NCBI GenBank assembly: GCA_965206275.1
Contig: OZ242203.1
Location: 761,894 to 825,893 of the forward strand
Reading direction: 5' to 3'
Source of the DNA: Dehalococcoidia bacterium
Lineage (GTDB): Bacteria > Chloroflexota > Dehalococcoidia > UBA6926
DNA: 64,000 bases
Shown: positions 20,848 through 37,369 of the stretch, one piece after another
Layout of the letters: each line of letters opens with the position of its first letter
How positions within the stretch are numbered: position 1 is the first letter of the stretch
Notes under the pieces: model-generated
Database searches by the model: none
Told to the model about the DNA's origin: nothing
What the model saw: the letters and a program-made list of their open reading frames with translations, nothing else
Translations under genes and position numbers: made by a program

Positions 20848-20921
20848 GCGGGCGTAACTCAGTGGTAGAGTGTCTGCTTCCCAAGCAGAATGTCGTGGGT
20901 TCGATCCCCATCGCCCGCTCC
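20848..20921 (+). tRNA. tRNA-Gly (anticodon CCC).
   Basis: Cloverleaf: acceptor GCGGGCG/CGCCCGC, anticodon stem TCTGC/GCAGA, loop TTCCCAA, T-loop TTCGATC, with CCA encoded. Confidence 0.9.
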
Positions 20922-20952
20922 ACAATTACCTACCCGTTACACTGGATAGACC

Positions 20953-22284
20953 ATGTTTGAGGCACTCACCGAACGACTCACCGGCGTCTTCAACAGACTC
21001 TCCGGCCGTGGCCGCATCACCGAGGCAGACGTTGAAGAGGCTCTGCGCGAGGTCCGCCGTGCCCTCCTCGAGGCCGACGTCAATCTCCGCGTCGTGCGCG
21101 AACTCCAGCAGAGCATCCGCGACCGCGCCGTCGGCGAAGAGGTCCTTCAGTCCGTCACGCCCGTCCAGCAGATCATCAAGATCGTGCAGGAAGAGCTGAC
21201 GGACGTTCTCGGCAAGGAGAATCGCGGCCTCGATGCGGGCGATAACCGCCCCGCCACCATCCTCCTCGTCGGTCTGCAGGGCTCCGGCAAGACGACAACC
21301 GCCGCCAAGCTCGCCTCCAACCTCGCGCAGCAAGGGCAAGCCGTTTCGCTCGGTGCGGGCGATGTACGCCGCCCCGCCGCCATTGAGCAACTGACCGCAC
21401 TCGGCAACCAAATCAATATTCCAGTCCATGCCGAGCCCGGAAACTCCAACGCAGTTGCCGTCGCCAAATCGTCTCTGGCCGCGGCTCGCGACGCCAACGC
21501 CCACTGGCACATCTTCGACACCGGCGGTCGACTGCAGGTCGACGATGAACTCATGAAAGAACTGGCGGACGTGCGCAAGGCGCTCAACCCTGCCGAAGTG
21601 TTGCTCGTCGTCGACGCCATGACCGGCCAGGACGCCGTGAACGCCGCCGAGGAGTTTCATCGGCAGGTGCCTCTCACCGGCCTCGTGCTCACCAAGATGG
21701 ACGGTGATGCGCGCGGCGGCGCGGCCCTCTCCATCACGTCCGTCACCGGCCTCCCTGTCATGTTCATCGGCGTCGGCGAGCGCATGGACGCGCTGGAACC
21801 CTTCTACCCGGACAGGCTCGCGGGCCGCATCCTCGGCATGGGCGATGTCGTCACGCTCGTTGAGAAGGCGCAGCAGACTATCGACGAGGAAAAGGCCCAG
21901 GAGATGGAGCGCAAGCTGCGCACCGCCACCTTCGATCTCAACGATTTCCTGGAGCAGATGAACCAGCTGCGCAACATGGGCGGCATGGCGAATCTGGTCG
22001 ACATGATCCCCGGCTTTTCCCAGATGAAAGGCAAGCTGCCAACGGACGCGTTCGACGAGAAACAGATCAAGCGCGTCGAGGCCATCGTGCTGTCCATGAC
22101 GCCGGAGGAGCGGCAGAGGCCGGACATCATCGGCGGCAGCCGCAGAAAGCGCATCGCGCGGGGCAGTGGCACACAGCCTGCCGATGTCAACCGCCTGCTC
22201 AATCAGTTCGGGGAAATGCGCAAGATGATGCGCCAGCTATCGTCCGGCAAGAAGATCCGCGGCCTGCCCTTCAAGCTTGGCTAG
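20953..22284 (+). CDS. ffh: Signal recognition particle protein Ffh.
   Basis: It has the N-domain, the G-domain (GLQGSGKTT, DTAGR) and the Met-rich M-domain. Confidence 0.95.
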   Translation: MFEALTERLTGVFNRLSGRGRITEADVEEALREVRRALLEADVNLRVVRELQQSIRDRAVGEEVLQSVTPVQQIIKIVQEELTDVLGKENRGLDAGDNRPATILLVGLQGSGKTTTAAKLASNLAQQGQAVSLGAGDVRRPAAIEQLTALGNQINIPVHAEPGNSNAVAVAKSSLAAARDANAHWHIFDTGGRLQVDDELMKELADVRKALNPAEVLLVVDAMTGQDAVNAAEEFHRQVPLTGLVLTKMDGDARGGAALSITSVTGLPVMFIGVGERMDALEPFYPDRLAGRILGMGDVVTLVEKAQQTIDEEKAQEMERKLRTATFDLNDFLEQMNQLRNMGGMANLVDMIPGFSQMKGKLPTDAFDEKQIKRVEAIVLSMTPEERQRPDIIGGSRRKRIARGSGTQPADVNRLLNQFGEMRKMMRQLSSGKKIRGLPFKLG

Positions 22285-22585
22285 ACCCCTGCGCCCGCAG
22301 GCCCTCGCGTAGCCGCGCCACCAGCAGCTTCAAGGACTCCAACAGCGCGCTGGCCTCGTCAGGCGGGATCTCGAACGGCTTGCGATTCGTCTCCGGAAAC
22401 ACCATCCAGAAATAGAACCCCTCCCACGCCCGATCCGCGGCTAAATCGTTCCGCGCCCGCATGATCGTCTCCAGGTACTTCCCCTGAAACCGCTGCCGCA
22501 CGTGCTCCAGCAAATCGGCATCCCCCGCCAACGAAGGCGCCCCCTCAAACGCGCTTAGCCACTCTTCCGCCGCAGGAATAGTCAT
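22271..22585 (-). CDS. Hypothetical protein (104 aa).
   Basis: An ORF with host-like high GC. It starts 22 nt downstream of the PD-(D/E)xK-like gene and its 3' end overlaps ffh convergently. I recognise no family. Confidence 0.4.
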   Translation of the reverse strand: MTIPAAEEWLSAFEGAPSLAGDADLLEHVRQRFQGKYLETIMRARNDLAADRAWEGFYFWMVFPETNRKPFEIPPDEASALLESLKLLVARLREGLRAQGSSQA

Positions 22586-22607
22586 TCAATTACCACGCCA
22601 AAAGCCC

Positions 22608-23663
22608 TCACCGGTACGTCGGCCCGTTAGGATCAATAATCTCGGCGATTCGTTCAAGTTCAGCCACGATGGCGTTGAGAGTGGCTTCTCGGTCTGCGCC
22701 AGACAGCAACGGAATCGCCACACAGTGAGTCATCCAGTTATGCCATTCTGTTCTTGATTCAACCAGAGTGCCCAATTTGTCCAGTACCGTATCACGACTA
22801 ACAGGTTGATCTGCACTAGTTGGTTGAATGGTCAGCCAGAGTGGAGGATTAGGCATTCGCTTCGCTGCCTCGTCGACTATGCCAAGCCAGACATATGCGC
22901 CAGACAGTACCATGAAACGCCCGTAAAAGCTCCCGAGGTATGACCCCACGTTCTGCGAACCTGGTTCTGCCCACCCTAACTGTTGCAGCCGTTCCCCAGC
23001 TTCCTGTATAAGCGTTACCAGATTCTCATCACGGCGGGGATCTCCGCCTTCCCGCGCGGCTTCGGCGAGGCCCTGCAGTTGGCTAATTTCGAACGCTGTT
23101 TGGGAGTCTCCTGCTCCCTCCGCCAGCACCTCTAACAGACGCTCCCAGCTCATGAGCATAAGACGTCGTGGTGTGCCTGTAGGGGTGGCGGCAATGAGGC
23201 CATCGTGCTCCGTGCGCTTGTCGAGTGTGTGACCCGCCTCGCTCAACCGCTGTACAAGTTCGTCCCACAGCCAGTTCTCACCAAGGCGCTGCTCTGGGGC
23301 GACAAAAAGCAGGGTGGTTGGGCGGTCATTCGAAAGGGCTTCCCAATATGTGACCGGTTGGTGGTAGGTCAGTGACGCCCAGAACTTGGCTTCAATAAAG
23401 GCCATGACACGGTCGTCAGTATCCTTCAGCGCCATGTCCGGATACGAGTAGGACGATGAGAGGTAATACTGCGTGTCGACGGAGTGGATGGGGATCGGAG
23501 TGCCGTCTGCATCACGCAAGAATCCAGACAGCGCGGCTCTCGCCGATTCGGAGCGGTTGAGAACAAAGCCGAGGGCACTCGTCATCACGTCCTCCATGCC
23601 CTGCGTGTGATAACGAGCAACATGGCCGAGCAGGCTGTACCCATCATTATCGGTGGCGGTCAT
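22608..23663 (-). CDS. Hypothetical protein (352 aa) whose N-terminal region carries a PD-(D/E)xK nuclease-like motif.
   Basis: The ATG at 23663 is preceded by GGAGGG. The motif is ...YPDMALKDTDDRVMAFIEAKFW..., which has the PD...(hydrophobic)4-E-x-K pattern. The C-terminal ~230 aa are unrecognised. GC is lower than in neighbouring genes. Confidence 0.55.
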   Translation of the reverse strand: MTATDNDGYSLLGHVARYHTQGMEDVMTSALGFVLNRSESARAALSGFLRDADGTPIPIHSVDTQYYLSSSYSYPDMALKDTDDRVMAFIEAKFWASLTYHQPVTYWEALSNDRPTTLLFVAPEQRLGENWLWDELVQRLSEAGHTLDKRTEHDGLIAATPTGTPRRLMLMSWERLLEVLAEGAGDSQTAFEISQLQGLAEAAREGGDPRRDENLVTLIQEAGERLQQLGWAEPGSQNVGSYLGSFYGRFMVLSGAYVWLGIVDEAAKRMPNPPLWLTIQPTSADQPVSRDTVLDKLGTLVESRTEWHNWMTHCVAIPLLSGADREATLNAIVAELERIAEIIDPNGPTYR

Positions 23664-23688
23664 GTTCCCTCCGTGACCTAGTCGCGAA

Positions 23689-24417
23689 TCATGCGTCTGA
23701 TGGTACAGCAGACACCTCAGTAACGATCCCATAGTGGTCAGACAGCTTCGCGCCATCATGAATGTTGCTGATTGCTTCCACGGATTCGCACGCCAGACCC
23801 CCGCTCAGCGCAATATGGTCGATGTTCCGGCGTCCCTCGAACGTGACATCAGCCGTCACAATTTCCAGATTCGGCGAGAAGGCGTCCTTGAGCGCCTCCC
23901 TGAGATGGACGGGAGCCCGAGCACCCTGCCCAATCACCTGGTTGAAATCTCCCAAGATGATGAGCGGCACATCGGTCTGCTTGGCAAGAACCTCAGTCAA
24001 AGCAGTCAGATATTGCTCGTGGTCCTCCCACCGCTCCTTGCGTTCCGCCCCACGTCTCTTCTCGGCGCGCGACCCGAACCACGGAATACAGATTCCCATC
24101 ACCATGACGTCGCCGATGGATGTCTGAGTAACGCCCGAAATGAACCGCCCCGGCGTCAGCGATTCATCCCCAAGGTCGTCAACGTCACGCCAAGGCTGCC
24201 GCGACCACAGCATCACCTTGCGACGATTCCCCTTATCGCCATAGCCATAGTCGGCCTGCGCCGTGACTGTATAGCCGCCTCGTGATAGCAACCGTTCGTC
24301 AGCCTCAGTCAGGCAAACAATTTCAGGTGCAAGCGAATCAATGCGGTGAAGAATCTCCGGAGTTCGCGCAGATCGCGGCGTCGCCCACTGAACATTCCAG
24401 TTAACGACGCGAATCAT
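23689..24417 (-). CDS. Endonuclease/exonuclease/phosphatase (EEP) family protein (242 aa).
   Basis: The MIRVVNWNVQ N-terminus and the ...LGDFNQ..., ...IDHI... and ...SDHY... blocks are typical of the EEP fold. The ATG at 24417 is preferred over the GTG at 24435. The gene lies 25 nt upstream of the next gene. Confidence 0.75.
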   Translation of the reverse strand: MIRVVNWNVQWATPRSARTPEILHRIDSLAPEIVCLTEADERLLSRGGYTVTAQADYGYGDKGNRRKVMLWSRQPWRDVDDLGDESLTPGRFISGVTQTSIGDVMVMGICIPWFGSRAEKRRGAERKERWEDHEQYLTALTEVLAKQTDVPLIILGDFNQVIGQGARAPVHLREALKDAFSPNLEIVTADVTFEGRRNIDHIALSGGLACESVEAISNIHDGAKLSDHYGIVTEVSAVPSDA

Positions 24418-24468
24418 GCGTGAATCGTAGACCACGCAATCATGCGGAGCAAAAGGAGAGCCGCCCTG

Positions 24469-24500
24469 CCCCCGCGTGACCTGGGCAGGTCACGCGGGGG
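24469..24500 (-). terminator. Intrinsic terminator-like hairpin with a 14-bp GC-rich stem, downstream of the 122-aa gene.
   Basis: The stem is CCCCCGCGTGACCT and AGGTCACGCGGGGG with a loop gggc. On the minus strand it is followed by ...CTCCTTTTGCT. Confidence 0.5.
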
Positions 24501-24508
24501 CAACCAAC

Positions 24509-24877
24509 TCAGTTCAACTCAAGGCCAGTGAGCGTATAGACCTCGGGGGTCGGAGGCTCCAGCCACGCCGGCATCACCTCATCCTCCCAGGGAATGAAGT
24601 CCATCTCGTCGGACTCATCCACGATGGAGTCACTGGGCGCAGGACGCTCGGAATTTCGGCGCACATTGTGAACGGTAGGCGGAACGCTCGCGATCCCCGT
24701 ATCAACAAAAAGTGTCTGTGCAGACACGTCCGTTGGGCGCGCCAGACTCTCCTCTGCCTCGTGATCAAACGGCTTGGCCGTTGGGCGATCGGGCTCGCTG
24801 GTGGAGCCCGCCGGTACATTGACGATGGGGTGTGCTCCCTGGGAAAGAACCGCCCCGATGTGAAGGCTCCTCAACAT
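24509..24877 (-). CDS. Hypothetical protein (122 aa) with an acidic C-terminus.
   Basis: AAGGAGGG lies 4 nt upstream of the ATG at 24877. The gene has its own terminator hairpin. I recognise no family. Confidence 0.5.
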   Translation of the reverse strand: MLRSLHIGAVLSQGAHPIVNVPAGSTSEPDRPTAKPFDHEAEESLARPTDVSAQTLFVDTGIASVPPTVHNVRRNSERPAPSDSIVDESDEMDFIPWEDEVMPAWLEPPTPEVYTLTGLELN

Positions 24878-25061
24878 GTCGCCCTCCTTCGCAGGCCGGG
24901 CAACTCTGCCGTCCCTTTCGGGTCCCCGACCCGCTGTACACGGACGGTATACTCCTCAAATTGTAACGTGTCAACTGTTTGATCCCGGCAAGGAGGCATA
25001 TGCGGCAAAGTACGCCTTCTGAGCCGCGAAACCCAATGCCGAAGAATTGTCTTTTGATTAG

Positions 25062-25093
25062 AATGTGACTATGGTCATGACCATAGTCACATT
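25062..25093. promoter_or_regulatory. Perfect 32-bp palindrome, likely the operator of the Phd/VapC module.
   Basis: AATGTGACTATGGTCA and TGACCATAGTCACATT are exact reverse complements. The palindrome lies within the promoter region about 30 nt upstream of the antitoxin gene. Confidence 0.6.
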
Positions 25094-25125
25094 AACTGCT
25101 AGACTGGCTCTCACGAGGTGTAGAA

Positions 25126-25395
25126 ATGGCAAACCCGACAGATAACCCACGCACCATCAAGGCGTCCGAATTCAAGGCGACATGCCTCAAGCTAATGGAC
25201 GAGGTAGCTGAGACGGGCGAGGAAATCATCATCACCAAGAACGGCAAACCCGTCGCCAAGCTCACCCCAACGGAGAATCGTCCACGCCGGACGTGGTTTG
25301 GCGCCGACCGGGACAAGCTCATCTTCATGGGCGACGTCATATCTCCAATCGACGTCGAGTGGGACGCCGAACAAGGCCGAATCGGCGGCGAGTGA
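25126..25395 (+). CDS. Type II antitoxin, Phd/YefM family (89 aa).
   Basis: It has the Phd/YefM N-terminal fold (TIKASEFKATCLKLMDEV...GEEIIITKNGKPVAKL). GAGGTG lies upstream of the ATG. Confidence 0.8.
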   Translation: MANPTDNPRTIKASEFKATCLKLMDEVAETGEEIIITKNGKPVAKLTPTENRPRRTWFGADRDKLIFMGDVISPIDVEWDAEQGRIGGE

Positions 25396-25796
25396 TGCTG
25401 CTACTCGATACTCATGTCCTCCTGTGGCACCGCTTTGGAGACAATCAACTTGGAATCGCAACCCGAAAGGCACTGGACGCCGCGTGGGTGTCACGCGAAG
25501 TAGCAGTGTCAGCGATGACTTTCTGGGAAATCTCCCTACTACGAAACAGGAATCGTCTGGACTATGTCGGAGACGCTTTAGCTTGGCGCGCCCAGTTGCT
25601 ATATGACGGATTAACCGAGATTCCCGTCGATGGAGAGATCGGCATCCACGCCAACTTGCTCTCAAACTTCCATGCGGACCCCGCAGATCGCATCATCGTC
25701 GCCACCGCCCTTGAAGGTCGTCACTACCTCGTGACGGCGGACGAGAGCATCCTCCAATGGGACAGCGTTCTGCCCCGAGTGGATGCTCGGGAATAA
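25395..25796 (+). CDS. vapC: Type II toxin VapC (PIN domain, 133 aa).
   Basis: The MLLLDTHVLLW N-terminus carries the PIN acidic residue, and a later ...VATALE... block is present. The ATG overlaps the antitoxin stop by 1 nt (TGATG). Confidence 0.85.
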   Translation: MLLLDTHVLLWHRFGDNQLGIATRKALDAAWVSREVAVSAMTFWEISLLRNRNRLDYVGDALAWRAQLLYDGLTEIPVDGEIGIHANLLSNFHADPADRIIVATALEGRHYLVTADESILQWDSVLPRVDARE

Positions 25797-25812
25797 GCAC
25801 CAGAGTAAACAA

Positions 25813-25844
25813 GTGCCCCCTCCGCTCGTGAGCGGAGGGGGCAC
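25813..25844. terminator. Bidirectional terminator hairpin between the convergent vapC and enoyl-CoA hydratase genes.
   Basis: The 14-bp stem GTGCCCCCTCCGCT/AGCGGAGGGGGCAC has loop cgtg and is followed by TTTCTGTCTT. Confidence 0.55.
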
Positions 25845-25867
25845 TTTCTGTCTTGGTCGATAAGAGG

Positions 25868-26764
25868 TTAGTCCCGCGCCGCAGCAGACCTCGGCCCGAA
25901 CGGCTCTGGCTGGAAGGGGCCGTCCCGTTCCTGCAGGTACGCCCTCAGGCCGCCCTCTTTACCGGCGTCCTCCATCTTGCGCTTAAAGTCTTCGCGCTGG
26001 GACGTGTGCGCCAGTGCGGACAGCTCCGCGTTCAGGTTCCACGCATTGTGGAATCCCATCATGTTCAGGCCCTGCGTCGCGACGGCCAAATTGATCTTCA
26101 CCGTCTCCGGGCTGACCAGCGCGATGCGCTCGCCGATGTACGTGCACTCCTCCATCAGGTCCTCGTGCGGCACAACCTTGTTGACCAGCCCGATCCGCAG
26201 CGCCTCCTGCGCGTCGATGTGGTCGCCTGTCAGACCGTAGCGCAGCGCGTGCTTGTAGCCCGCCAGCAGCGTCCAGATGAAGTTCGTGTTGGAGATATGA
26301 CGAATTTCCGGCTGACCGAACACCGCGTTCTCGGACGCAATCGTGATATGGGTCGTCAGCGCGTACCACGAGCCCCACGCCAGAGCCCAGCCGTTGATCG
26401 CGCCGATGATCGGCGTCGTCAGCTCCCACATGTGCATCAGGCGGCGGATGCCCGTCCTGTCCTGCGTGCGCCACTGATCGAGGAACGATGCGACGGACTG
26501 ACCTTCCTGCAGACCATACGGCCACACGGTATCGGAGTTTCCGCCACCCGCGCCAAGCGCGAGGTCCGCGCCCGCGCTGAACGCCCTGCCAGCGCCCGTC
26601 AGGATGATGTATCGAATGTCCGGGTCCTGCTCCGCCTCGTCGAACGCGGCATGCACGTCGCCGCGCAAGCCCTGGTTGAATGCGTTCATCTGCGCGGGGC
26701 GATTCAGCGTGATAACAACGCCCTTGCCCTGCCGCTCATACAGCACATTCTCGTACTCAGCCAT
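25868..26764 (-). CDS. Enoyl-CoA hydratase/isomerase family protein, a paralog of 9312-10226.
   Basis: The ATG at 26764 (MAEYENVLYERQGKGVVITLNRP) is preceded by AGGAGGAA 7 nt upstream. It shares with the paralog the C-terminal tail ...KEGGLRAY...PFQPEPFGPRSA. Confidence 0.8.
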   Translation of the reverse strand: MAEYENVLYERQGKGVVITLNRPAQMNAFNQGLRGDVHAAFDEAEQDPDIRYIILTGAGRAFSAGADLALGAGGGNSDTVWPYGLQEGQSVASFLDQWRTQDRTGIRRLMHMWELTTPIIGAINGWALAWGSWYALTTHITIASENAVFGQPEIRHISNTNFIWTLLAGYKHALRYGLTGDHIDAQEALRIGLVNKVVPHEDLMEECTYIGERIALVSPETVKINLAVATQGLNMMGFHNAWNLNAELSALAHTSQREDFKRKMEDAGKEGGLRAYLQERDGPFQPEPFGPRSAAARD

Positions 26765-26937
26765 GTAGTGATTCCTCCTAACCCCCGCCACCGTGGGCGG
26801 CATCAGAACTGATTGTTTGACAAGCTTACCATTGCCATACAGATGTGCTACACTTCGGAACAGGAGTTCCACGAACGCACGTTCGCTCGGCCCCAAACAA
26901 CGTGGAACACAGACGGCAGAACGGGAGGAATGGTATT

Positions 26938-35665: not shown

Positions 35666-36433
35666 TTAGACATCGACGCAGGTAAAGTGTGGGTTTCGCC
35701 CCCTGCCCCAGCACGAATCCATGAAGGAATTGACACGCTCATACAAGAGAGTGGGGACCTCTTCGTTGGCAGAATTCGGGATGACAAAGAATACGCGTGG
35801 AGGTAACCGGTTGAATCGAAGAGCGACAATCTCACCACTTGGCCCAACAAGGTTTAACTCTCGTCGCAAATTGACAGCATGACGGTGTATTTGTTCTTCA
35901 TGAGTGCCGTCTCTATTGAAGTGCTGATAAATTACCAGTGACTTGCCCATTTCCCACAGTCTGGCTGCTTCGCCATGAGTAGCGTGCTCAACGTCAGGGG
36001 TATCCGCCAAGCCATTATCCGGATCGAGAAAGACTAAATCGCGGTCCCCCACCTCATGCATTGCCCGAGTGAACCAGCCGTCCCTAGCCAAAGGGGCATT
36101 GACCGAATCGCGGTAATACATTGTGCCATCCGACAACGCCCCTGAGTTTTGCATCGCCATAACCGATCTCTGGCCGTCATTGATGAGATTCTGCAAAATC
36201 CCATACAGCTCAGGGTCGCACTGTATCAAGCGTTGCTCGTGTTGACTTGGAATTTCGAGATAATTGAACGGTTGCCCTAGTTCAGGCAACGCTGCGTTTG
36301 TCTCAACGTAATACCAAATAACCCCTAGCCGCAGTTGCCATCCACCATCCGAGTCCCCACATAGCCACCTAAGCAACCCATATTTCCCAAAATCACCAAC
36401 ATCTCCGACGAATCGATCTTGCATCCGTGCCAA
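35666..36433 (-). CDS. Hypothetical cytoplasmic protein (255 aa) of low GC.
   Basis: The ORF is about 50% GC against about 65% in its surroundings. The N-terminus reads FVGDVGDFGKYGLLRWL. Later ...VFLDPDNGL... and ...LVIYQH... blocks weakly resemble the RlmJ-like methyltransferase fold, with the catalytic (D/N)PPY motif degenerate. Family is unassigned. Confidence 0.5.
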   Translation of the reverse strand: MARMQDRFVGDVGDFGKYGLLRWLCGDSDGGWQLRLGVIWYYVETNAALPELGQPFNYLEIPSQHEQRLIQCDPELYGILQNLINDGQRSVMAMQNSGALSDGTMYYRDSVNAPLARDGWFTRAMHEVGDRDLVFLDPDNGLADTPDVEHATHGEAARLWEMGKSLVIYQHFNRDGTHEEQIHRHAVNLRRELNLVGPSGEIVALRFNRLPPRVFFVIPNSANEEVPTLLYERVNSFMDSCWGRGRNPHFTCVDV

Positions 36434-36625: not shown

Positions 36626-37369
36626 CTAGTCTGCCGGGGAAAGCTCGCTGCGGCCCTGGTACATTCCGAAGCCGATGATGAACAGCGCTATCGAGCCCAC
36701 CATTAGGGTCACGTTGTTGATGACCAGTAGCATCTCTAGATCCAAATCAGTGAGGTGCATGCCCGCGTTGACGACTACGAAGGTCACAACTCCCACCAGC
36801 ATCAGCGCATAGCCGGCAATCTTGTAGATGTTCATCTCCTTGATGCACATCACCAGGCCAAGACCCAGGAGGAATGAGGCAAACGGCAAGATGAATAGGG
36901 ACGCCAGAAACGCCCCAACCATGTCCGCGTATCCTCCTATTGCCAGTAACTCAAACTGCGCCATCCCTTCAGGGCCCAGGGTGTCCTCGCCACGCTGCAG
37001 GAGATGGAGCAGGAGGTGTCGCTCGGCGTGTCCAAGGATGACCAAAGCCCACTCAACCACGGTCAGAATAATGCCGAAGCAGAGAATAGGACGGGCTAGG
37101 GCGCCTTCACCCTCAGATAAGGTGTAAAGCCGAATCACTGCCCCAATCATCAGAAGCATGCCGATAATCGAAACTGTTGAAGACACGTGACCAATGTTTG
37201 GATAGTCTGCCAGTACAGCGACAGTACCCACGTAGTCCGCTGGGTCCGTGTACTCAATGAGGAATCCACCCGGAAGGAAAAATGGCGCAACAAACGAAAG
37301 GACTATTCCGACCATAAACGCCAAGCCTGCTGCCTTGGTCTTCCGCGCAGCTCGCTCCTCGTTACTCAT
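36626..37369 (-). CDS. Hypothetical polytopic membrane protein (247 aa, about 6-7 transmembrane segments) of low GC.
   Basis: The ORF is about 50-52% GC, has a hydrophobic periodicity consistent with 6-7 helices, and has its own terminator. I recognise no family. Confidence 0.55.
   Translation of the reverse strand: MSNEERAARKTKAAGLAFMVGIVLSFVAPFFLPGGFLIEYTDPADYVGTVAVLADYPNIGHVSSTVSIIGMLLMIGAVIRLYTLSEGEGALARPILCFGIILTVVEWALVILGHAERHLLLHLLQRGEDTLGPEGMAQFELLAIGGYADMVGAFLASLFILPFASFLLGLGLVMCIKEMNIYKIAGYALMLVGVVTFVVVNAGMHLTDLDLEMLLVINNVTLMVGSIALFIIGFGMYQGRSELSPAD

Follow-up and report, generated by a model that had tools for sequence, protein, structure and literature searches.

The interval between ffh and an enoyl-CoA hydratase gene (ECH) in a 64,000-nt stretch of contig OZ242203.1 from a Dehalococcoidia bacterium, hereafter the window, raises the question of what a nuclease gene and its neighbor of unusual base composition are doing at this site. 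A first reading of the DNA without database searches (the sequence-only reading) had singled out an open reading frame (ORF) with a PD-(D/E)xK motif, here called nuc, and an adjacent gene for a protein of the endonuclease/exonuclease/phosphatase (EEP) fold, here called EEP-A, as a candidate module resembling defence genes. The comparison of loci described below indicates that nuc is functionally coupled to one or two EEP enzymes, and it points to a restriction-like role that we hold tentatively.

A scan of GTDB at one genome per species identified 315 loci; 78 distinct loci were retrieved from these, and homologs of the window genes were mapped onto them (loci are denoted by L and a number). 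Genes were called with a length-greedy caller; a caller weighted by the GC content of third codon positions (GC3) overlooked the module genes, in which GC3 is low. About 14 of the 78 loci are orthologous to the window and have the order ECH - PIN/Phd - p122 - EEP-A - EEP-B - nuc - p104 - ffh, where EEP-B is a second EEP gene and p122 and p104 encode proteins of 122 and 104 aa. At about 25 more loci, located at unrelated chromosomal sites, an EEP gene lies immediately 3' of nuc, in the orders nuc-EEP-A, nuc-EEP-B, nuc-EEP-A-EEP-B and nuc-EEP-A-[nuc::EEP-B], the double colon marking a fusion. In total, nuc and EEP genes are adjacent and co-oriented with gaps of less than 100 nt at about 39 of the 78 loci, in at least three gene orders. 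Single-ORF nuc::EEP-B fusions of about 660-710 aa are present in L020, L021, L045, L048, L054, L057, L061 and L088, and Pfam independently confirmed the fusion in the database protein P0252 (659 aa), in which the nuc profile covers residues 1-346 and PF03372 covers residues 392-649. Recurrent adjacency, reinforced by the fusions, argues that the coupling of nuc and EEP is real. The pair had been proposed as a coupled unit from the window alone, and this part of the proposal is upheld; the tabulation of nuc neighborhoods that had been recommended showed EEP as a recurring, though facultative, partner.

The N-terminal domain of nuc is predicted to be an active PD-(D/E)xK nuclease with intact catalytic residues. 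Among 39 homologs (28-78% identity), residues E24, D76 (in PD), E91, Q102 and Y106 show no variation and K93 is retained in at least 90%, so that the signature consists of an E..PD..ExK core followed by QxxxY; the PD-(D/E)xK core that had been read by eye is invariant or nearly so across the set. An AlphaFold2 model (pLDDT 88.8) has two domains, and the N-terminal one has the alpha-beta-beta-beta-alpha-beta core fold of restriction-endonuclease-like proteins. No match to nuc was found in Pfam, NCBIfam, PADLOC or PHROG, its homologs likewise had none in the last three, the nuc profile did not match any PDB sequence, and Foldseek against PDB gave nothing significant. Nine of the 39 homologs matched Pfam PDDEXK_4 (PF14281) over the catalytic core, all below the 22.3-bit threshold (best E=1.4e-4), and one had a sub-threshold match to Mrr_cat (E=0.0075). 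The relatives P0069 and P0245 reached 19-20 bits with PDDEXK_4, likewise short of the threshold. The window nuc itself did not match PDDEXK_4 and does not qualify as a member of that curated family. The possibility that the C-terminal half is a decayed duplicate of the nuclease domain at the N terminus was rejected, as hhalign showed no similarity between the two. An exhaustive profile search placed 3,126 clusters at 50% identity in the nuc family at E<=1e-3, and 1,351 at E<=1e-30. The family is large, wholly unannotated and concentrated in Chloroflexota; it is patchy, multi-copy and hugely diverse, with several copies per genome. Plasmids lack it and viral contigs essentially do too, which fits a cellular gene and is silent on function.

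EEP-A matched PF03372 well above the gathering score (E=1.4e-12, 48.3 bits, cutoff 24.5) over profile positions 2-225 of 225, in agreement with the EEP fold first assigned to this 242-aa protein. The catalytic motifs WN, CLTE, GDFNQ, IDH and SDH are all intact, and N8, E38, D157, N159, D200, D227 and H228 do not vary among 32 homologs or within the locus set. In the ranking of similar folds, exonuclease III (ExoIII)/apurinic-apyrimidinic (AP) endonucleases came first, then TDP2, LINE-1 endonucleases and Nocturnin, with sphingomyelinases and inositol phosphatases lower. EEP-A is therefore predicted to be a catalytically competent, exonuclease III-like EEP enzyme. It fails the xth equivalogs TIGR00633 and TIGR00195, with 26.3 versus 99.05 bits and 20.3 versus 182.55 bits, and its alignment to these models is restricted to the N-terminal 159 residues; it did not match any PDB sequence. 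Homologs of EEP-A amount to 1,187 matches, some of them solitary. EEP-B represents a second, very divergent EEP family that keeps the motifs WN, LQE, GDLN and SDH. It is not a close paralog of EEP-A, as hhalign aligned just the GDxN motif region of the two, and its search against PDB sequences gave three non-significant matches to HORMA proteins (E 0.05-0.07). A role of the EEP proteins as effectors directed at a sponge host was also considered and is made unlikely by the fusion to a nuclease, the ExoIII-like fold and the lower rank of the lipid and inositol phosphatases.

Some loci have features of their own. The "double" architecture nuc1 - EEP-A - nuc2::EEP-B recurs in L054, L057, L061, L048 and L088; two nuc paralogs, one beside each EEP type, hint at a 1:1 pairing of nuc with EEP. 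In L088 (2841-10819), nuc - EEP-A - nuc::EEP-B (the fusion being 668 aa) adjoins two 325-aa DDE_Tnp_1 transposase genes, which suggests occasional mobility of the module mediated by insertion sequences (IS). A co-directional gene for an XRE-family helix-turn-helix (HTH) protein of about 105 aa is located just 5' of nuc in L058 (7463-7831), L060 (7443-7832) and L049 (2629-3018), all of which are nuc-EEP-A loci; L052, L054 and L067 have degraded copies of the HTH gene. An HTH_3/HTH_37 gene of a distant clade (L089, 6682-7008) overlaps the nuc start by 8 nt. By analogy, these HTH genes are reminiscent of restriction controller (C) proteins or HigA-type antitoxins. A distant nuc homolog (30% identity) in L091 (3209-8098) lies directly 3' of a pair of GyrB-like and GyrA-like (type IIA topoisomerase) genes, with IS605 OrfB nearby. 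L085 (3153-10717) has a solitary EEP-A homolog among YaaC, a GmrSD_N-domain (Type IV restriction-type) gene, a second EEP fragment, DUF7662 and PIN genes, and its neighborhood looks like a defence-island context for EEP-A alone.

The window itself carries a reduced module, EEP-A plus nuc, from which EEP-B has been deleted. The nucleotide alignment with L001, the closest relative, ends at window position 23683 (L001 2169) and resumes at 23653 (L001 3072), inside nuc. A five-codon remnant ORF remains on the minus strand at 23678-23692 (ATG ATT CGC GAC TAG, M-I-R-D-stop), and the overlap of its ATG with the EEP-A stop codon is exactly that seen in relatives. Because the remnant is the start of EEP-B, with this same overlap, a clean deletion of about 0.9 kb is indicated; there is no EEP-B elsewhere in the 64-kb window. 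The deletion need not inactivate the module, since nuc-EEP-A pairs without EEP-B occur naturally elsewhere.

Comparison of the orthologous loci indicates that nuc alleles have been replaced by recombination, with old, functional alleles maintained and not decaying. The gene order from ECH to ffh is the same in about 14 species-level genomes. Amino-acid identities in these loci are 90-98% for ffh, 97-99% for ECH, 75-95% for p104, 74-88% for EEP-A and 67-88% for EEP-B, and the identity of nuc to the window copy is 45-55%, reaching 78% in L001 only. In L062, the ffh, p104 and EEP-A products are 98%, 95% and 85% identical to those of the window, and DNA homology is lost from 23685 to 22700 except for a 108-nt stretch over the nuc catalytic core. 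Pairs in which the flanking genes have a synonymous divergence (dS) of 0.33-0.45 are saturated at nuc (dS 1.9-2.0 or undefined); saturation between such little-diverged flanks implies allele replacement. For nuc, the ratio of nonsynonymous to synonymous divergence (dN/dS) is 0.15-0.36, with every ORF and catalytic residue preserved. In Mantel tests, EEP-B (rho 0.56) and p104 (rho 0.74) distances follow those of ffh, whereas nuc distances are uncorrelated with them (rho 0.08, p=0.29). The view that the islet is an old or decayed variable insertion has to be abandoned for this lineage, given the constant order and intact ORFs. The check that had been proposed, comparing the region downstream of ffh among relatives, showed a block fixed in the roughly 14 species and no integrase at the locus, and a metagenome scan anchored on p104 for "empty" ffh loci returned one locus, which ends 321 bp upstream.

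The base composition of the region had been estimated by eye at 52-57% GC against about 65% in neighboring genes. Bulk GC is 0.580 for the region, 0.567 for nuc, 0.575 for EEP-A and 0.560 for the PIN gene, against a window mean of 0.618, and ffh, ECH and p104 are at 0.63-0.64 (p104 is normal, at 0.635); the bulk drop (0.58 versus 0.618) was therefore overstated. The region comes 17th from the bottom in a scan of 605 sliding windows of 3.5 kb and lies about 2 standard deviations below the mean. Two other stretches of the window are equally GC-poor, and one of them carries an ordinary ammonium transporter gene (amt). The anomaly is strong at third codon positions, GC3 being 0.60 for nuc and 0.64 for EEP-A versus 0.83 for ffh and 0.82 for ECH, and the low GC3 of the module genes recurs in all 14 orthologous loci examined. 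Since the GC3 contrast is kept in all of them, the anomaly is real and a property of the module genes, p104 excluded. In both GC and GC3 the composition is thus atypical, which is one mark of a horizontally acquired islet. We also note that the lower-GC stretch at 33-37 kb of the window (GC about 0.575-0.59) has minus-strand ORFs of 255 aa (35666-36433) and 247 aa (36626-37369) without a Pfam match, which adjoin the ammonium transporter gene.

What, then, does the module do? Our best guess, to which we assign a probability of roughly 0.4 to 0.45, is that nuc and EEP provide a methylase-independent, restriction-like defence against foreign DNA. This is favored because no methyltransferase is linked to the module and because the exchange of nuc alleles does not follow the genome tree. 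No DNA methyltransferase gene is present at 19-29 kb of the window or in the annotated orthologous loci, as it would be in a Type II restriction-modification system, and the nearest methyltransferase is the TrmI/GCD14 tRNA methyltransferase beyond ffh. In such a scheme nuc would recognize a DNA target, by way of its fast-changing surfaces and C-terminal domain, and make the first cut; the EEP partner or partners, acting as 3'-5' exonucleases or as AP-type or end-processing nucleases, would enlarge the break, leading to destruction of the target and not to its repair; and self-DNA would be spared through target specificity instead of methylation. The more specific proposal of an undescribed methyltransferase-independent immune system, in which a hypervariable, cassette-swapped nuc selects the target and ExoIII-like enzymes, sometimes fused to it, finish the destruction of the DNA, is one we advance with greater reserve. 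A role in conflict or defence is also favored by the persistently atypical GC3 of the module genes and by features of the surroundings: toxin-antitoxin (TA) modules are adjacent, an Mrr-type gene is in the L004 slot, an XRE-type HTH gene precedes nuc at some loci, and GmrSD, integrase or transposase genes lie near distant members of the family. Many of the relatives are metagenome-assembled genomes whose record names point to sponge metagenomes, and sponges are a habitat in which defence genes are reported to be enriched (PMC8163846).

Several results weigh against a defence function. PADLOC-DB v2 gave no match at E<=1 for six window proteins or the 39 nuc homologs, and the four module-region proteins did not match any PADLOC, DefenseFinder-type, PHROG or NCBIfam defence model; the absence of matches in PADLOC, NCBIfam and PHROG does bear out the earlier statement that the pair corresponds to no known defence or restriction system. 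The 124 nearest neighbors at 62 loci away from ffh are mostly metabolic or housekeeping genes (ABC-F, PolX, thiamine pyrophosphate enzymes, deacetylases), and the PADLOC matches among them reflect generic ABC-ATPase or helicase similarity. The surroundings of the module are not enriched in defence genes, as the ffh locus has just TA pairs, plus Mrr in L004. About 38 of the 78 loci hold nuc without an EEP partner, and together with the solitary EEP-A genes this makes the partnership facultative. The alleles of nuc and EEP-B do not co-vary (Mantel rho -0.07), a result that speaks against an allele-specific complex. Structural matches to the C-terminal domain of nuc (residues ~185-351) were weak and heterogeneous, none of them informative; a remote-homology search with the C-terminal ~230 aa had been called for, and the one run against structures did not assign a family. 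The stable synteny in about 14 species also fits a lineage-specific housekeeping role. Of the label "defence-like module," therefore, the conserved pairing of EEP and nuclease stands, and the defence role is a plausible guess. Taken together, we regard the computations as solid evidence for a nuclease module that is coupled and fast-evolving, and the neighborhood evidence for defence as weak.

An unlikely alternative, though the strongest of those considered, is that the genes serve lineage-specific DNA repair or metabolism, with an ExoIII-like AP endonuclease or exonuclease working beside a structure- or lesion-specific PD-(D/E)xK nuclease as a housekeeping function near recA. The structural proximity of EEP-A to ExoIII/AP endonucleases and its weak xth matches agree with such a role, although 26 bits against a 99-bit xth cutoff and the low GC3 in all loci do not. 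A position between ffh and ECH/recA that is syntenic in about 14 species, with small genomes (about 1.9-2.5 Mb), would be expected of a repair function, as would the housekeeping neighbors at other loci and the absence of nuc from plasmids and its near absence from viral contigs. A housekeeping nuclease is difficult to reconcile, however, with a nuc identity of 45-55% where that of ffh exceeds 90%, with divergence that is uncorrelated with the genome tree, and with the allele replacement implied by saturated dS. The patchy, multi-copy distribution of the family over 3,126 clusters and the tolerated loss of EEP-B in this genome also speak against it.

Less probable again is a selfish or addictive nuclease, either a homing-endonuclease-like gene or a toxin restrained by a partner, which would persist by cutting loci that lack it or carry other alleles. 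Sharp recombination boundaries at nuc between conserved arms, exchange of nuc alleles independently of the genome tree, and solitary nuc copies between unrelated housekeeping genes at many loci, several per genome, are what such an element would produce, and the IS elements or integrase near some loci, the adjacent TA modules and the XRE-type HTH gene directly 5' of nuc in some loci point the same way. Homing, however, predicts presence/absence polymorphism, whereas the divergence here is allelic at a site that is always occupied, and no inteins, introns or target-site duplications were noted. A restrained toxin would need its partner, yet no conserved small antitoxin or immunity gene moves with nuc, p122 being confined to the ffh locus; absence from plasmids and essential absence from viral contigs likewise count against selfishness. 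Least probable of all is that unrelated accessory nuclease genes merely pile up in a permissive, low-expression slot, as the solitary occurrence of nuc and EEP-A each in many genomes, the varied accessory genes of the ECH-ffh slot in L004 and L007 and the independent variation of nuc and EEP-B alleles might suggest, for co-oriented adjacency with gaps below 100 nt at about 39 of 78 loci, at different sites and in different orders, and nuc::EEP-B single-ORF fusions in at least 7 independent genomes, one of them Pfam-confirmed, would not be expected of chance accumulation.

If the defence reading is correct, it adds to current defence catalogues a nuclease immune module with a pairing they lack, that of a PD-(D/E)xK nuclease with an active ExoIII-like EEP enzyme, and it gives a function to a family that comprises over 3,000 sequence clusters and is wholly unannotated. 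Independently of what the module does, the locus offers a clean natural case of cassette-like allele replacement in more than a dozen uncultured Dehalococcoidia species, and a nuc gene at 45-55% identity between flanks at 90-99% lends itself to the study of balancing or frequency-dependent selection in genomes that are streamlined and host-associated.

The features of the interval are collected in the table below. The sequence-only reading had described four co-oriented minus-strand genes, and ORFs of 104, 351, 242 and 122 aa were found; the spacers of 25 nt (EEP-A/nuc) and 22 nt (nuc/p104) were the same when re-measured, and the strong GGAGGG ribosome-binding site is where it was reported. 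The nuclease has 351 residues, not 352: its start is the ATG at 23663, reading from 23666 adds a spurious N, and the closest homolog likewise begins MT..DND. The 122-aa gene had been credited with a terminator of its own, and a 17-bp hairpin does lie 3' of it, but the terminator scan found its T-tail to be weak.

Features of the ffh-ECH interval and its surroundings, in window coordinates
Feature	Position	Strand	Basis or remark
tRNA-Gly(CCC)	20848-20922		beyond ffh, away from the islet
ffh	20953-22284	+	one flank of the interval
p104, 104 aa, conserved protein without a family	22271-22585	-	ORF call
nuc, 351-aa uncharacterized nuclease	22608-23663	-	N-terminal PD-(D/E)xK type, C-terminal alpha/beta domain
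GGAGGG, Shine-Dalgarno-like, 3 nt 5' of the nuc ATG	23667-23672	-	sequence read
EEP-B deletion scar, ATGATTCGCG, the first 10 nt of the relatives' EEP-B	23683-23692	-	alignment to L001
EEP-A, 242 aa, EEP fold, exonuclease III-like	23689-24417	-	ATG as used by homologs
17-bp perfect inverted repeat (hairpin) between p122 and EEP-A	24467-24502	.	repeat search
p122, acidic 122-aa protein without a family	24509-24877	-	ORF call
Perfect 32-bp palindrome (16+16), AATGTGACTATGGTCA and TGACCATAGTCACATT, 33 nt 5' of phd	25062-25093	.	likely TA operator
Phd/YefM-family antitoxin, 89 aa	25126-25395	+	PF02604 E=3.3e-10; TIGR01552
PIN-domain (VapC-type) toxin, 134 aa	25392-25796	+	PF01850 E=2.3e-11
Terminator-like bidirectional hairpin, 16-bp stem, between PIN and convergent ECH	25811-25846	.	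terminator scan
Enoyl-CoA hydratase gene (ECH)	25868-26896	-	other flank of the interval

The Phd/YefM and VapC pair that had been recognized beside the block is divergent from the four minus-strand ORFs, and the phd stop and PIN start overlap by 4 nt. With both domains matched, overlapping genes and a palindromic operator, it is an ordinary type II TA pair; the 32-bp palindrome was verified as perfect, and its role as the operator is likely. The hairpin between PIN and ECH has a GC-rich stem and T-rich tails on both strands and is likely a bidirectional terminator for the two genes. The TA pair is kept in most, but not all, orthologous loci, with MazE-PIN in its place in L004. The islet had also been described as lying near a tRNA gene; the tRNA-Gly gene sits on the opposite side of ffh.

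The 104-aa and 122-aa genes had been included in the module, from which we exclude them because both are confined to the ffh locus and p104 stays with ffh; they are best regarded as residents of that locus. p104 is always convergent with ffh, the 3' ends overlapping by 14 nt in the window. It has a strikingly conserved core (DRAWEGFYFWMVFPETNRKPFEIPP) and no family, and it stays beside ffh even in L004 and L007, where RCC1-repeat and other genes intervene. p122 was found in 13 loci, all of them ffh loci, just 5' of EEP-A. Its product has an isoelectric point of 4.3, looks largely low-complexity and matched no family in Pfam, PADLOC or NCBIfam; a dN/dS of 0.06-0.22 indicates purifying selection and is consistent with real coding. 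That p122 might be a nuclease inhibitor or DNA mimic is pure speculation. In L004 (451-10179) and L007 the ECH..ffh slot is about 10 kb long and has extra genes: an Mrr_cat restriction-type gene, a MazE-PIN pair, an LRR/fn3 protein, an RCC1/WD40-repeat protein and a small PIN-like pair. In some relatives, therefore, the interval appears to be an accessory-gene hotspot with eukaryote-like repeat proteins, in keeping with the accessory-island location suggested at the outset.

Both folds, and nuclease defence genes without a methyltransferase, are well-known kinds; what appears new relative to the catalogues and the searchable literature is the nuc family, its pairing or fusion with active EEP enzymes, and its cassette behavior in a fixed slot. 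The nearest functional parallels are the Mrr, McrC-type (Type IV) and Shedu/SduA nucleases, which resemble nuc in being unlinked to a methyltransferase, rapid in sequence turnover, chromosomal and often solitary. Unlike Mrr and Shedu, nuc has no match to Mrr_cat, the one sub-threshold case aside, or to DUF4263 (Shedu); its nuclease domain is N-terminal and followed by an alpha/beta domain, and about half of its loci have an EEP partner or fusion. A recognized reader domain for modified DNA, of the kind joined to the nuclease in Type IV enzymes (SRA, EVE/YTH, DUF262/GmrSD_N and the like), was not seen in nuc. The sole sequence family with any similarity to nuc homologs is PDDEXK_4 (PF14281), which is itself listed as a PD-(D/E)xK family of unknown function (Steczkiewicz et al. 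2012, PMC3424549). EEP-A differs from exonuclease III and the AP endonucleases (Xth, ExoA, NApe) in falling below the xth cutoffs and, unlike canonical xth, in having a PD-(D/E)xK nuclease as a linked or fused partner. The literature search found no described defence system with EEP and PD-(D/E)xK components besides the precedent of ARMADA ArmC, a phage-defence protein that combines an EEP domain with restriction-fold nuclease domains. ArmC is a very large YprA-type DExH helicase with Vsr domains and an EEP domain predicted to be inactive, whereas the module described here consists of small proteins without a helicase or ATPase, and both of its EEP families keep their catalytic residues.

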